DNA of 64,000 nt from an uncultured Thermoplasmatales archaeon (GTDB taxonomy: Archaea > Thermoplasmatota > E2 > UBA202 > DSCA01). The notes under the pieces were generated by a model. The model was not told the origin of the DNA, searched no databases, and worked only from the letters and a program-made list of their open reading frames with translations. Of the stretch, positions 10,854 to 60,932 are shown piece after piece. The stretch spans positions 33,678 to 97,677 of the forward strand of contig CAZESS010000005.1 of assembly GCA_964514975.1 (NCBI GenBank). Reading direction: 5' to 3'. A program made the position numbers and the translations under genes. Numbering within the stretch: the first letter of the stretch is position 1; each line of letters begins with the position of its first letter.

Positions 10854-10951
10854 CCGCCTCCGGGGAAATCGAATGATTTTTCAAAAGGAGATGCGTGTCT
10901 GGCTGACAGACAGCTAATAAAGCTTAAATATGTTCGCCTCATTATCCAACA

Positions 10952-11020
10952 GTGGCAATACATCGGAGGGGCGGTTGCCACGGTATTTTACCACCTCCAT
11001 CTCCCAGCCCCTCCATTTTA
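10952..11020 (+). ncRNA. Candidate small RNA (hairpin/pseudoknot exposing CACCUCC)
   Basis: TATA-like CTTAAATA at 10923-10930. Stems 10952-58/10975-81 and 10965-74/11004-14. No credible ORF. Confidence 0.45.
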
Positions 11021-53757: not shown

Positions 53758-54770
53758 AGATTCTCGGCCAGGACCGGGATGAGGGCAGGATAAAGCTGCG
53801 GGTACAGTCCACGGACGACTGCTGGCATCTGCACAATCTGCTGGACCCCGGTGACCGCGCTGCTGCGTTTACCCATCGGACGAGCCAGCAGCCCCAGGAT
53901 AAAACCCGGGCGGGCAAGGGAGAAAAAGAGGGGATGTATCTGACGCTCGAGGTCATCGACGTCGGCTTCCAGCGGTTTTCGGACCGGCTGCGCATCCAGG
54001 GCGTCATCGTGGAGGGACCGCAGGATCTCGGCAAGCATCACACGTTCAACGTCACAACGGGTACCGTCCTTACCATACAGAAGGAATGGGGGCCGTCACA
54101 TCTCAAGCGGCTGAAAAAAGCCGTCGAGGCGAGCCGGCAGCCGGACATCGTGGTGGTGGCCATGGACGACGACGAGGCCACCGTCGCCGTCATCCATCAG
54201 TATGGCGTGGAGGAAAAAGCACATATCACCTCGGGGCGCAGCGGCAAGCAGTACGAGAGCGACAGCACCGAGCATGAATACTACGGCGACATCTACGCAA
54301 AGCTCCAGCAGTACGACCTACCGCTCGTCATCGTCGGACCCGGGTTCGCCAAGGAAAACTTTCAGTCGTTCATCCAGAACAAAAAAGACCTCGGCCGGCA
54401 CATCGTAGAAACCACCGGTCACGCAGGCATGGCAGGTGTCAAGGAGGCAATGAATCGGGGCATCGTCGAGCGGATCGTCGAGGCGTCAACCCTGGCACGG
54501 GAGTCACGGCTGGTCGAGGAGCTGCTGCAGGCGATAGCGCAGGACAAGCCGGTCACCTATGGCGAGGAGGAGGTCACGCGAGCCATCGAACTGGGCGCGG
54601 CGGAGCAGGTGCTCGTCCTGTCGAATTTCCTGCATGAAAAAGAGGAGTTGCTGGAAAAAGCGGAGCGGATGGGCGCCGAGGTGCACGCCATCAGCGATAT
54701 CCATGAAAGCGGCGAAAAGCTGGCGGCTCTCGGCGGTATCGCCGCCCTGTTACGCTACCGTATCAGCTGA
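53754..54770 (+). CDS. pelA: Pelota (Dom34) ribosome rescue factor
   Basis: DDCWHLHNLL, RLRIQG, GKHHT, GPGFAK and LGGIAALLRY. Confidence 0.95.
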   Translation: MKILGQDRDEGRIKLRVQSTDDCWHLHNLLDPGDRAAAFTHRTSQQPQDKTRAGKGEKEGMYLTLEVIDVGFQRFSDRLRIQGVIVEGPQDLGKHHTFNVTTGTVLTIQKEWGPSHLKRLKKAVEASRQPDIVVVAMDDDEATVAVIHQYGVEEKAHITSGRSGKQYESDSTEHEYYGDIYAKLQQYDLPLVIVGPGFAKENFQSFIQNKKDLGRHIVETTGHAGMAGVKEAMNRGIVERIVEASTLARESRLVEELLQAIAQDKPVTYGEEEVTRAIELGAAEQVLVLSNFLHEKEELLEKAERMGAEVHAISDIHESGEKLAALGGIAALLRYRIS

Positions 54771-55383
54771 CCTCGACCTTTTTGATGCTGTACTCGTAGT
54801 ACGTATATTCGAGGGTGACAGTGTAGTCGTTGCCCCGGTCCAGCAGGAACGGCTTCGTGTCGATGCCCACGGTGGCCGTCCAGTCCCCGGTGCCCGTGCG
54901 GCTCATGTACTGCTCTTCGACAATTTCCTCAGCGTGGCTCATGTTGGACGCGTTGAGTTGCACCGAGTCGGGCTTTTCGCCGATGTCCGCCATGACGGTC
55001 AGCGGGCCACTGAATCCGCTGGCTTCGCTCGACCCCGAAAAGCTCACGCCCGACGGGCCTGACACCCGAAGGGAGAGCGTATCGGACCAGTTCCATGGAA
55101 TGATGAACCCGCTCGCCCAGTCATCCTGCCAGTTGAGGGTGACGGTGACGCTGCCCAGCCCTCGCTCGGAGATGGTAAAGTTTTCCTGGCTGGTACCCCC
55201 CTTGGCGACGTGCCCCTCGCCGGGGAGCGTAACCGTTTTCTTATCCCAGTTGATATTGAACGCATACTGTTTTTCCATCTCCTCCGCCGATGACGTGTCC
55301 TCCTGCTGGTACACGACGCCTATAAGCGCGATTATAACGATAACAACACCTGCAGCAACAACGATCTTGTCCCGTTTGTCCAT
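54763..55383 (-). CDS. Hypothetical membrane-anchored exported protein
   Basis: N-terminal TM, beta-rich body, SD AGGTGA. Confidence 0.75.
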   Translation of the reverse strand: MDKRDKIVVAAGVVIVIIALIGVVYQQEDTSSAEEMEKQYAFNINWDKKTVTLPGEGHVAKGGTSQENFTISERGLGSVTVTLNWQDDWASGFIIPWNWSDTLSLRVSGPSGVSFSGSSEASGFSGPLTVMADIGEKPDSVQLNASNMSHAEEIVEEQYMSRTGTGDWTATVGIDTKPFLLDRGNDYTVTLEYTYYEYSIKKVEVS

Positions 55384-55530
55384 AATATCACCTTACGTAT
55401 AGGGAAAGGTGTTTTTGTTTATAAAATTTAGCCCCTGAAAAAAGGGCCGGCGACGACGACATCGAAACCCCACGCGATATTATAAAAAAATCCGAAAGAT
55501 ACATATAGGGCGAAAGCCTATACTTATTAC

Positions 55531-55620
55531 GGGAAGGATAGGCTGGTAGTTGTTAGAGTGCATCCCATCCCCTCCTAAAAACACTCTTTTTCTCTGCCTA
55601 TCCCTTCCCATTTCCTCCTT
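55531..55620 (+). ncRNA. Candidate small RNA (long hairpin with CCCCUCCU loop)
   Basis: 13-bp stem 55531-43/55596-609 and inner stem 55555-60/55582-87. TATA-like ACATATAG at 55501-08. Confidence 0.5.
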
Positions 55621-55643
55621 CTATTGCCTCAAACAGAGCTATG

Positions 55644-55889
55644 TTATCCACCGCCCACCGGTGACAGCAGTGCTATCTCGTCGCCGTCAGCGAGCGTTTC
55701 ATCGCCGTCCGCCACTCGATGGTTGCGGGACACCACGGTCGTCGGGCGAAGCTCCTCCAGGCCGGGATATCGGTCAACGAGCATGTCGAGCAGTTCAGCC
55801 ACCGTCGTGCCAGGCTCCACCTGCATCTCCACCCGGCGCTTTCCAACGGCTTTTCTGTGCGCGGCGAAAAAGGTAACCGTGACATTCAT
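55644..55889 (-). CDS. MoaD/SAMP ubiquitin-like sulfur carrier
   Basis: VTFFA and DGDEIALLSPVGGG (C-terminal GG). Confidence 0.92.
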   Translation of the reverse strand: MNVTVTFFAAHRKAVGKRRVEMQVEPGTTVAELLDMLVDRYPGLEELRPTTVVSRNHRVADGDETLADGDEIALLSPVGGG

Positions 55890-56620
55890 CTTTGCCCTCC
55901 GCATGCCGGGCAGTCCGTTTTTCGTTCCACCCTGATGTGGTCGGCATCATGACAGCCGGCGTCATACACGAAGAGCATGTCGGTGAGTAACGGCGCGATG
56001 CCGGCCAGGTACTTGACCGCTTCGGATGCCTGCACCGTGCCGATGGTGCCGGCGATGCTGCCGAGCACGGGCGTTTGCCGCTCCTGCGGAGTGTGAGAAA
56101 ACACGCAGCGCAGGCACGCACTGCCGCCGGGCATGACGGTCATGGCCTGCCCGTGCAGCTCGCTGACGGCGCCATGAACGAGGGGGCGCCGGAGCGCTAT
56201 AGCGGCGTCGTTGAGCACGTATCGGGCGGCAAAGCTATCCAGGCAGTCGAGAACGACGTCTGCATCGGCCAGTAGCTCCGCGGCGTTGTCCTCATGGATG
56301 TGCTCACAATGGCAGGTGAGCGCAACATCGGGGTTTATCCTGCCGAGCATTGCGGCCGCCCGCTCTACCTTGGGATGGCTGATGTCCGCCTCGCGGTAGA
56401 GCACCTGACGGTTGAGATTGGACAGTTCCACCATGTCGCCGTCGACGAGCAGGAGATGGCCGACCCCTGCTGCGGCGAGGTACATCGAGGCGGCGGAGCC
56501 GAGACCGCCGAGACCGACGATGGCTGCGGTGCCATCAAGCAGTTTTTCCTGGCCTTCATCGCCCAGGCAGGACATGGCGGTCTGCCGGGCATAGCGCTCA
56601 CGCTGACGGTCGGACAACAT
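55886..56620 (-). CDS. ThiF/MoeB/UbaA E1-like adenylyltransferase
   Basis: RYARQ, GLGGLG, ELSNLNRQ, CLRC and CPAC. Confidence 0.93.
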   Translation of the reverse strand: MLSDRQRERYARQTAMSCLGDEGQEKLLDGTAAIVGLGGLGSAASMYLAAAGVGHLLLVDGDMVELSNLNRQVLYREADISHPKVERAAAMLGRINPDVALTCHCEHIHEDNAAELLADADVVLDCLDSFAARYVLNDAAIALRRPLVHGAVSELHGQAMTVMPGGSACLRCVFSHTPQERQTPVLGSIAGTIGTVQASEAVKYLAGIAPLLTDMLFVYDAGCHDADHIRVERKTDCPACGGQR

Positions 56621-60579: not shown

Positions 60580-60710
60580 CAGGTGGCGAGGGATGTAGAA
60601 TGGCTGGTTAATGGATAGATTTTCCCAAGGTTACGAATAGTTGTTTCATCTCAATTGTATAGGCACTTCCTATACTTTTACTGATTATTCTACATCACCC
60701 AGGTGGCGAG
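60580..60710. mobile_element. MITE-like element: 10-bp terminal inverted repeats inside 11-bp direct repeats
   Basis: CAGGTGGCGAG at 60580-90 and 60700-10; GATGTAGAAT (60592-601) / ATTCTACATC (60687-96); AT-rich interior. Confidence 0.55.
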
Positions 60711-60714
60711 CACG

Positions 60715-60797
60715 TGGTGAGATGGAGGCAGGGGGAAGAAGAGGCGGTGATTGTGAGAAAAAAGAGAGGAGGGAAACCCTCTTCTTGCCCCCAGAGC
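60715..60797 (-). ncRNA. Candidate small RNA (14-bp hairpin with CCCUCCU loop)
   Basis: Minus-strand CTTTATAAAT at 60830-21; stem 60792-78/60744-31. Confidence 0.5.
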
Positions 60798-60932
60798 GTA
60801 GCTATACCAACAGAGGCATCATTTATAAAGGATATTGTGCAAACGTCGAATCGTTTCGGACAGATGTCGAAACATAAAGGTTTTTATATTCTCTCCAGAT
60901 AAACATGGCGGGGTGTTGCCATCGAGGAAATC

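Follow-up and report, generated by a model that had tools for sequence, protein, structure and literature searches.

A new, widely conserved archaeal small RNA family with a predicted target in cell division

DicF of Escherichia coli (Rfam RF00039; PMC5069750) is a short trans-encoded RNA which acts on the ftsZ mRNA near its translation start, and other RNAs directed at ftsZ have been described in bacteria, namely a small RNA (sRNA) of Klebsiella (PMC10907235) and the cis-antisense RNA StfZ (PMC9628754). Among archaeal sRNAs, sRNA162 of Methanosarcina mazei (PMC3510493) is trans-encoded and has a bicistronic target which includes a transcription-factor gene, and 6C of Actinobacteria (PMC6486639) presents, on a hairpin scaffold, C-rich loops to G-rich stretches of mRNAs. 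In haloarchaea, cdrS and ftsZ2 are co-transcribed (PMC7439475, PMC8406309), the two open reading frames (ORFs) being 3 nt apart in Haloferax volcanii (PMC8406309), and it has been suggested that ftsZ2 is also controlled after transcription (PMC8303175). Our full-text literature search returned the work on CdrS and the bacterial ftsZ-directed sRNAs, and no archaeal sRNA aimed at ftsZ. The element that we describe here may bear on the post-transcriptional control of FtsZ-based division in archaea. It is a hairpin at positions 55531-55609, plus strand, of a 64,000-nucleotide stretch of DNA ("the window") from an uncultured Thermoplasmatales archaeon (assembly GCA_964514975.1, contig CAZESS010000005.1). 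A sequence-only reading of the window had presented this hairpin as one of three sRNAs exposing CCUCC tracts directed against Shine-Dalgarno (SD) sequences. The comparisons reported below lead to a new and widely conserved family of archaeal sRNAs, with a well-supported predicted target in cell division: the spacer between cdrS and ftsZ, which we call the ftsZ leader. To our knowledge, archaeal sRNAs with a known target are few, and we know of none this broadly conserved.

The closest functional likeness is to DicF and the other bacterial ftsZ-directed RNAs, the closest among archaea to sRNA162 and the closest in design to 6C, and the present RNA is a member of none of these. With DicF and StfZ it would share base-pairing near the ftsZ start, a candidate Sm-like protein taking here the place that Hfq has there. 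However, Rfam finds no match to DicF in sequence or structure; DicF is prophage-borne and narrowly distributed, whereas the present RNA is chromosomal, archaeal and found in many families; and the present RNA is predicted to lie on the intercistronic spacer upstream of the SD, not over the SD and the start codon. The RNA of M. mazei is unrelated in sequence, has another target and a narrow distribution, and has been verified experimentally, whereas the present RNA is known from sequence alone. RsaE and RNAIII of Staphylococcus are also hairpins whose C-rich loops pair with G-rich mRNA. Like 6C, they are bacterial and use several short C-rich seeds on many targets, whereas we find one long invariant loop and a second block, with a single outstanding target. 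Finally, the gene pair is the one of the haloarchaeal cdrS-ftsZ2 operon, a ribbon-helix-helix (RHH) regulator followed by ftsZ, but the spacer measures 70 nt here and about 50-150 nt in relatives, and it contains blocks complementary to the sRNA. Pairing with the sRNA would account for a spacer of this length, against the 3 nt of Haloferax.

The target was found in the following way: when the intergenic spacer holding the hairpin was searched against its own genome (G000), a single other significant place came out, G000:C22:22246-22299, on the strand opposite to the gene of a 363-residue FtsZ (TIGR00065, E 8.5e-110). The matched stretch lies between ftsZ and the gene of a 77-residue RHH protein, whose best NCBIfam match is CdrS (E 5e-12, 45.6 bits; the cut-off of this haloarchaeal model, 100, is not reached). 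Read in the sense of ftsZ, the spacer is UGGGCAUGCACUCUAACAACUACCAGCC-AUCAAAA-AACUACCAGCCUAUCCU-GAAAGGAGGAAACAAUAU-AUG. It faces the sRNA at two sites: the first covers 29 nt against positions 55541-55569 (a perfect 23-mer against 55541-55563, extended past one bulge), and the second, proximal to the SD, is a perfect 17-mer against 55535-55551 which ends 5 nt before the SD. With blastn-short in the own genome, the 23-mer has an E-value of 4e-6 and the 17-mer of 0.012, the next best match being at 0.17. In a scan of duplex energies over the 6879 own-genome windows which share a 7-mer seed with the complement of the sRNA, the ftsZ leader reaches -64.7 kcal/mol, the next site -50.8 kcal/mol (mean -29.7, standard deviation 5.5). 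By both searches, the ftsZ leader is the only significant predicted complementary site in the genome. The second-best site of the scan (G000:C7:64476-64545, minus strand) reads GGGATGGGGTGCATACAACAGCACC and is apparently coding; it is leader-like and not significant.

The same complementarity is found in the relatives. Orthologues of ftsZ were identified by protein search, hence independently of the RNA, in 41 of 41 genomes. All 29 leaders with sequence (one contig which ends early was left out) have ACCAGCY located 11-45 nt 5' of the ftsZ start codon, together with a G-rich block, for instance GGGAGGGGAUGGGAUG, which is full in 17 leaders and degenerate in 12. In many leaders, this block is placed in a hairpin loop closed by GCGG/CCGC. 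Near-contiguous complementarity of 19-33 nt between sRNA and leader, ending 11-45 nt 5' of the ftsZ start codon, is seen in the own genome and in all 26 relatives where both sequences are available. In every one of the 26, the duplex energy is lower than that obtained with any of 100 dinucleotide-shuffled versions of its leader (z from -5.8 to -13.8); being related, these genomes do not amount to 26 independent trials.

The strongest argument for pairing is, as far as sequences can tell, that sRNA and leader vary together. In genus g6 the sRNA has UUG for UAG and the linker CAAAGG, and the leader of G019 matches it at 33 of 33 positions. In g9 the sRNA has UGG and the leaders of G028 and G038 have CCACC, while one leader keeps U, which gives a G-U pair. 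In G017, AUGGGC replaces AUAGGC, a change mirrored both in the leader (CCAGCCC) and in the 3' arm of the sRNA itself. The linker between the two pairing blocks is absent from both partners in G036, where 26 of 26 positions match, and it is shared by both partners in G021 (UAUA) and G022 (CAG); UUUGG is likewise present in both partners of G014, and in G040 GGUGGCUGG is complementary to CCAGCCACC. In the distant genomes G039 and G041-G043, the leaders contain GGGGAUGGGAUGCAC, which a 35-nt hairpin of unrelated sequence separates from CAACUACCAG and the SD, whereas the linker of the sRNA is a U-rich loop: only the two pairing blocks are held.

This last observation bears on the possibility that the two loci of each genome are a DNA-level element, either an inverted protein-binding site (for instance for a CdrS-like regulator) or a gene-converted repeat, and that no RNA pairing is involved. 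The same 20-30 nt do stand at two places per genome, beside the gene of a DNA-binding protein, and in G000 and G002 the spacer contains tandem copies of the block, as such an element could. However, since the linkers of the distant genomes are unrelated and only the blocks are held, simple gene conversion, at least wholesale, and a rigid protein-binding site are both disfavoured. The blocks stand anywhere from 0 to about 45 nt apart, and within a single genome the two loci do not have the same spacing, which again misfits a rigid site, and a binding site has no need of a promoter, a T-run and a compensated stem. We hold the DNA-level explanation to be very improbable. The explanation that we prefer, and which we regard as probable though well short of certain, is that the hairpin is a trans-acting antisense sRNA regulating the translation of ftsZ by pairing with the cdrS-ftsZ leader.

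The conservation of the sRNA was followed by BLAST of its spacer in 40 relatives. Every one of the 12 other family genomes has the core (E <= 1e-20), and shorter pieces reach the level of the order and of the class, as in G040 (37/37 nt). The C-rich block is identical in all 36 relatives recovered in this way, which is independent evidence because no pattern was used to gather that set. Two segments are invariant: one, GGCUGGUAG, belongs to the 5' arm and the internal loop, the other, GCAUCCCAUCCCCUCC, to the apical loop. Across the alignment, the promoter, the 5' arm, the blocks GGCTGGTAG and GCATCCCATCCCCTCC and the 3' arm are kept, while the inner stem is not kept and the flanks cannot be aligned between genera. 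Across the phylum, sampled evenly, 97 of 401 genomes contain the exact two-block pattern, and none contains the same pattern reversed as a control; allowing a gap of 0-30 nt and taking one genome per species, we found the pattern in at least 115 public contigs of metagenome-assembled genomes (MAGs). Those listed are all MAGs of uncultured archaea, nearly all labelled Thermoplasmata, Thermoplasmatales or Thermoplasmatota. Both the collection of sequences and the phylum scan demanded exact blocks, and the invariance inside these sets is by construction. By family, the pattern is present in f1 (11/11), f2 (14/14), f4 (52/54) and f15 (9/9), and absent from f7 (0/19), f10 (0/48), f13 (0/36), f23 (0/24) and f31 (0/58). 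Genomes of f7 carry a variant sRNA with GGCUGGUAC or GGCUGGAGUAG, and in one f31 genome the C-rich block sits in a different stem. Many f4 genomes have two sRNA copies with different linkers, and in G039 two copies stand in tandem, about 230 nt apart (G039:C37:7921-8209).

The hairpin itself is real, far beyond chance: its plus strand folds at -29.4 kcal/mol (z = -4.44), and none of 200 dinucleotide shuffles folds as well. We tested the terminal stem P1 on a homogeneous alignment of 24 sequences, to which P1 was given by hand, and on a table of arm heptamers, as RNAalifold, given the 87-sequence MAFFT alignment with its misaligned arms, returned seven spurious pairs. In the 24 sequences, 97.9% of the P1 cells are paired, against 39-54% when the partner is slid, and we see one double change and several G-U intermediates. 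Among the arm heptamers of 119 distinct sequences, GGAAGGA faces UCCUUCC or UCCUUCU in 64 of 100 cases, GGAAGGG faces CCCUUCC in 6 of 8, AGAAGGA faces UCCUUCU in 6 of 7 and GGAAGAG faces CUCUUCC in 2 of 3; P1 has undergone three kinds of compensatory heptamer change. In an f7 member, GGAAGC pairs with GCUUCC. The inner stem changes its register with the genus: the window has AGAGUG/CACUCU, four sister genera have GAG(U)GCAUC/GAUGCUC, and the next family has GCAUC/GAUGC.

We then considered predicted folds of 87 sequences, of which 67 form the terminal stem. On average, 10 of the 15 nt of the C-rich 15-mer CAUCCCAUCCCCUCC are unpaired, whereas the CCUCC is wholly unpaired in 30 folds and has at least three of its five nt paired, with a downstream GAGG, in 56. 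From these counts, an exposed CCUCC is not a constant feature of the family, while an exposed CAUCCCAUCC is. The sequence-only reading is upheld for its arms, inner stem, loop and second CCUCCU, whose letters and coordinates all agree with the sequence, and also for its TATA-like box (Table 1); the unpaired CCUCC which it described is seen in the predicted fold of the own genome and not generally in the family, and the second CCUCCU, present as described, is kept within the genus alone and is probably outside the conserved RNA.

The function proposed in that reading was a trans-acting repression of SD-led mRNAs at large, such as those of secreted peptidases. In its general form, this would be an anti-SD regulator whose CCUCC loop masks or titrates the GGAGG of many SD-led mRNAs, the ftsZ leader being one among many. 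As no 16S rRNA was found in the assembly of the window, we took the 16S 3' end from a genome of the same family (G005): the loop CAUCCCCUCCUA matches it (GAUCACCUCCUA) at 10 of 12 positions. The G-block of the leader resembles an extended SD, and the window contains two more conserved C-rich hairpin RNAs, all of which fits a general regulator. However, the 16 invariant nt of the loop and the invariant second block of 9 nt far exceed what an anti-SD needs, the CCUCC is mostly paired in the folds just described, the own-genome scan gives a single outstanding site, which is the cdrS-ftsZ spacer, and in the ftsZ leader the loop is complementary to the upstream G-block, not to the functional SD. 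We consider a generic anti-SD regulator quite improbable. What survives of the earlier proposal is a probable pairing in trans near a ribosome-binding site, by a loop which resembles the end of 16S rRNA; what does not is the generic targeting, including that of the peptidase mRNAs. Since the loop resembles the 16S 3' tail and the G-block an extended SD, it is possible that the sRNA competes with ribosomes for an upstream standby site, a refinement which keeps part of the earlier idea.

We now turn to the promoter and to the strand. Among 122 distinct loci, A/T makes up at least 90% at positions -29 to -24, an A/T run of at least 6 nt ending at -32 to -16 is found in 113, and an xGAAA element stands 5' of this run in 104. 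A T4 run lies just 3' of the 3' arm in 69 of 107 loci; in 16 of the 107, which belong to the family of the window and to its sister family, a T5-T7 run is found 5' of the 3' arm instead. An early termination at the internal T5 run is possible, and the short isoform so produced would have its 5' arm free. The covariance model R1 gives 76.6 bits on the plus strand (55532-55608) and 20.2 bits on the minus strand. Together with the conservation described above, this anatomy is that of a putative independent small-RNA gene on the C-rich strand, as the sequence-only reading had proposed.

The minus strand has nevertheless to be weighed. The hairpin might belong to the terminator or 3' untranslated region (UTR) of the ThiS-like gene at 55644-55904 (minus), or to a 43-codon ORF at 55480-55611 (minus): it also folds on that strand, with z = -2.78, and the ORF has an SD-like GGAGG just 5' of its ATG. 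But in other genera the element is surrounded by unrelated genes, the ATG is absent from two of four genus relatives (G001 and G004, which read CCCTTTCC), the insertions and deletions of the inner region are not multiples of three, R1 prefers the plus strand, and the ORF has no Pfam match. The ATG loss, the indels, the R1 score and the lack of a Pfam match led us to reject both the small ORF and the ThiS terminator; a minus-strand feature of any kind seems to us hardly credible.

Further support for the strand comes from an Sm-like (LSM) gene. Among 118 distinct loci with enough upstream sequence, 63 have such a gene directly upstream and on the same strand, its stop codon being 38-180 nt 5' of the sRNA (LSM domain PF01423, E 1.3e-22). 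As this gene reads in the same direction, the strand of the sRNA is independently supported. The LSM-linked loci (among L041-L152) include GC-rich lineages of other classes. In the family of the window and in its sister family, the sRNA is not adjacent to lsm; in the own genome, what comes after the lsm orthologue (G000:C17:50622-50831) is an ordinary protein gene, so that the linkage has been lost there. This synteny and the U-rich linker make an Sm-like protein a plausible chaperone of the sRNA.

They could also mean that the RNA has another main task, the sequestering or delivery of Sm protein or a role as 3' UTR of lsm, in which case the ftsZ leader would be a decoy or sponge, or the two RNAs would bind one and the same protein. 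The frequency of the linkage, its presence in GC-rich lineages of other classes, the U-rich linker between the two blocks and a conservation unusually wide for a regulatory sRNA all agree with this idea. Yet the two families in which the sRNA is not beside lsm have kept the same blocks and the same complementarity to the leader, and the co-variation of sRNA and leader points to RNA-RNA pairing, not to a shared protein site. We judge this alternative improbable.

If the sRNA does pair in trans with the cdrS-ftsZ mRNA, its action may be imagined as follows. Pairing would begin with the exposed C-rich loop CAUCCCAUCC on the G-block GGAUGGGAUG of the leader, and the duplex would then spread through the internal loop into the 5' arm, until it covers the spacer, beginning at the cdrS stop codon and stopping a few nt short of the ftsZ SD. 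The access of ribosomes to ftsZ, or its coupling to cdrS, would be altered, and the level of FtsZ tuned in this way, with an Sm-like protein perhaps acting as chaperone. We favour repression, by reduced ribosome loading or coupling, but stabilisation or activation might also result.

Several points weigh against this mechanism. The direction of the regulation is a guess, and the ends, strand and abundance of the RNA are ones that we infer from its sequence. The predicted P1 sequesters the 5' arm, that is half of the pairing region, and in most family members the CCUCC is partly paired. The co-variation rests on a handful of lineage events in relatives which are not independent, the same kinship underlying the 26 duplexes, and, the core blocks being invariant, most of the evidence is conservation. 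In the f7 leaders (L232, L233), GGGAUGGGAUGC, the G-block, is kept and followed by a GC-rich hairpin, while CUACCAGCC is lost; f7, with its changed 5' block in the sRNA, may show the interaction in a naturally reduced form. The pattern scan, which misses every f7 genome (0/19) despite their variant sRNA, has a limit of its own: some of the absences that it reports may partly reflect divergence. Lastly, the spacer of the window's family contains a TATA-like GATATAATAA; were it an internal promoter, the ftsZ mRNA could start downstream of the complementary site.

A bolder version can be put forward, which we regard as doubtful: the sRNA would be an ancient riboregulator, common in the phylum and linked to an Sm-like gene, forming with the cdrS-ftsZ leader a conserved RNA-RNA switch of division, its loop would mimic the 16S anti-SD tail and compete with ribosomes for an SD-like standby site 5' of ftsZ, the choice between termination at the U-run and read-through would decide whether the seed is free, and the RNAs at 10952-11019, 60724-60792 and G000:C21:30330-30415 would be of the same class of anti-SD mimics, each with a partner of its own. 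Short of this, the proposed regulation of ftsZ already supplies a concrete sRNA-target pair with natural compensatory variants, a candidate link to an Sm-like chaperone, and a covariance-model seed for the annotation of hundreds of Thermoplasmatota genomes.

The sRNA was also compared to known RNA families. Rfam, to which the sequence-only reading had pointed as the place where a known family might turn up, gave in its release 15, whose models cover DicF, 6C, RsaE, archaeal sRNAs and the C/D and H/ACA RNAs, no match at gathering score in the whole 64-kb window; in E-value mode, 55400-55700 matched nothing except mir-483 (E 7.4) and Vax2os1_3 (E 9.5), both at chance level. The ftsZ leader has no Rfam match either, and no tRNA was found in the window. 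By eye, we rejected an archaeal H/ACA guide RNA (the lower stem is followed by AUUUCC on the plus strand and GUAAUA on the minus strand, with no ACA, and there is no GA/GA kink-turn) and an archaeal C/D box sRNA (the C box RUGAUGA and the D box CUGA are absent from both strands of 55531-55609). A role as rRNA guide was rejected for the region of 16S and the internal transcribed spacer, to which, in a genome of the same family, the complementarity does not exceed 8-9 nt. As for the class of trans-encoded sRNAs, two of its marks are present in the sequence: an independent intergenic unit with sequence signals of promoter and terminator, and conserved complementarity near the translation start of a distant mRNA, in 26 of 26 genomes. 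In our assessment from sequence, the sRNA belongs to an undescribed RNA family of many Thermoplasmatota lineages. Genome-wide, R1 has weak matches at C4:91465, C8:20628 and C17:20096, which we did not retain as further copies: one is an unrelated hairpin, and two are stretches without features of RNA genes, probably coding.

Table 1. Positions of the sRNA, of its parts and of the two other hairpin RNA genes in the window.
Feature	Positions	Strand	Remarks
sRNA body, about 79 nt, predicted ends	55531..55609	+	covariance model R1, fold z, conservation in relatives
Promoter: CCGAAAG resembling a transcription factor B recognition element (BRE), then TATA box ATACATATA	55492..55507	+	24 nt 5' of G55531
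P1 5' arm GGGAAGGATAGGC (as RNA GGGAAGGAUAGGC)	55531..55543	+	partner is 55596-55609
P1 3' arm GCCTATCCCTTCCC (GCCTATCC-C-TTCCC; as RNA GCCUAUCC-C-UUCCC)	55596..55609	+	single bulged C
Inner stem AGAGTG/CACTCT	55555-55560 and 55582-55587	+	inner hairpin is 55555..55587
Apical loop CATCCCATCCCCTCCTAAAAA, 21 nt	55561-55581	+	closed by inner stem
Invariant C-rich block GCAUCCCAUCCCCUCC	55560..55575	+	apical loop; complementary to G-rich block of ftsZ leaders
Region complementary to own-genome cdrS-ftsZ spacer	55535..55569	+	spacer at G000:C22:22246-22299
T5 run within the RNA	55587..55591	+	5' of 3' arm
Second CCTCCT	55614..55619	+	kept only within genus
Member 1, separate hairpin RNA gene	10952..11019	+	TATA TTAAATAT at 10924-10931
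Member 3, separate hairpin RNA gene	60724..60792	-	TATA CTTTATAAA at 60822-60830

The locus is flanked by two genes of the minus strand. The one at 54763-55383 encodes a 206-residue protein with no Pfam match, and the one at 55644-55904 a ThiS-family protein with a C-terminal Gly-Gly, downstream of a ThiF-family gene. The ThiF-family and ThiS-family genes overlap (55644-56620, minus strand), and the pair looks like an E1-like enzyme with a ubiquitin-like small modifier or a sulfur carrier. Between the TATA box and the start of the RNA, at 55504-55522 (plus strand), lies a small hairpin with a GAAA loop, TATAGGGC-GAAA-GCCTATA, which is loosely kept and within the genus only.

The two other loci of the sequence-only reading, members 1 and 3 of its family of common design (the sRNA described above being member 2), are real and conserved hairpins, each with its own TATA box, a T-rich end and one compensatory stem change: GUGGCAA/UUGCCAC of member 1 becomes GUGGUGA/UUACCAC in two relatives, and GAAGAGG/CCUCUUC of member 3 becomes GGAGAGG/CCUCUCC in one. 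Their cores, at the coordinates of that reading, are found in 12 of 12 genomes of the family, and none of 8 genomes from other families has them. For homology with member 2, the evidence does not reach significance. R1 gives 13.0 bits (E 0.35) at locus 1 and 11.3 bits (E 0.93) at locus 3, where the two strands receive similar scores; apart from member 2 itself, no place in the 64-kb window scores higher. Neither score is significant, and BLAST finds no cross-match between member 2 and either locus. On this sequence evidence, it seems best to regard the three loci as separate genes which resemble each other in design. The 3' part of member 1, ACCACCUCCAUCUCCCAGCCCCUCC, shows one difference among 12 sequences, and the search for a target of this RNA in the own genome gave nothing above a 14-mer (E 0.52).

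Member 3 has a perfect 21-nt complement at G000:C21:30334-30354, and in the own genome and four of four genus relatives neither locus shows any change in this 21-mer (100% identity). The complement lies in a long hairpin at G000:C21:30330-30415 (L250), preceded by a TATA-like box, whose arms are rich in purines (5') and in pyrimidines (3') around a CUGCCUCC loop; along its first 21 nt, every base is complementary to the locus-3 RNA. A search of 8 more distant genomes did not find this hairpin. The two RNAs may form an sRNA-sRNA pair. Just downstream of the locus-3 RNA, at 60590-60703 (minus strand), we observed a repeat of about 110 nt with the hairpin GTATAGG-AAGTG-CCTATAC, of which copies exist at G000:C11:56878-56991 (99%), C19:7340-7449 (100%) and C1:171009-171134 (83%), and also in the relative G003. 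This repeat may be a miniature mobile element.

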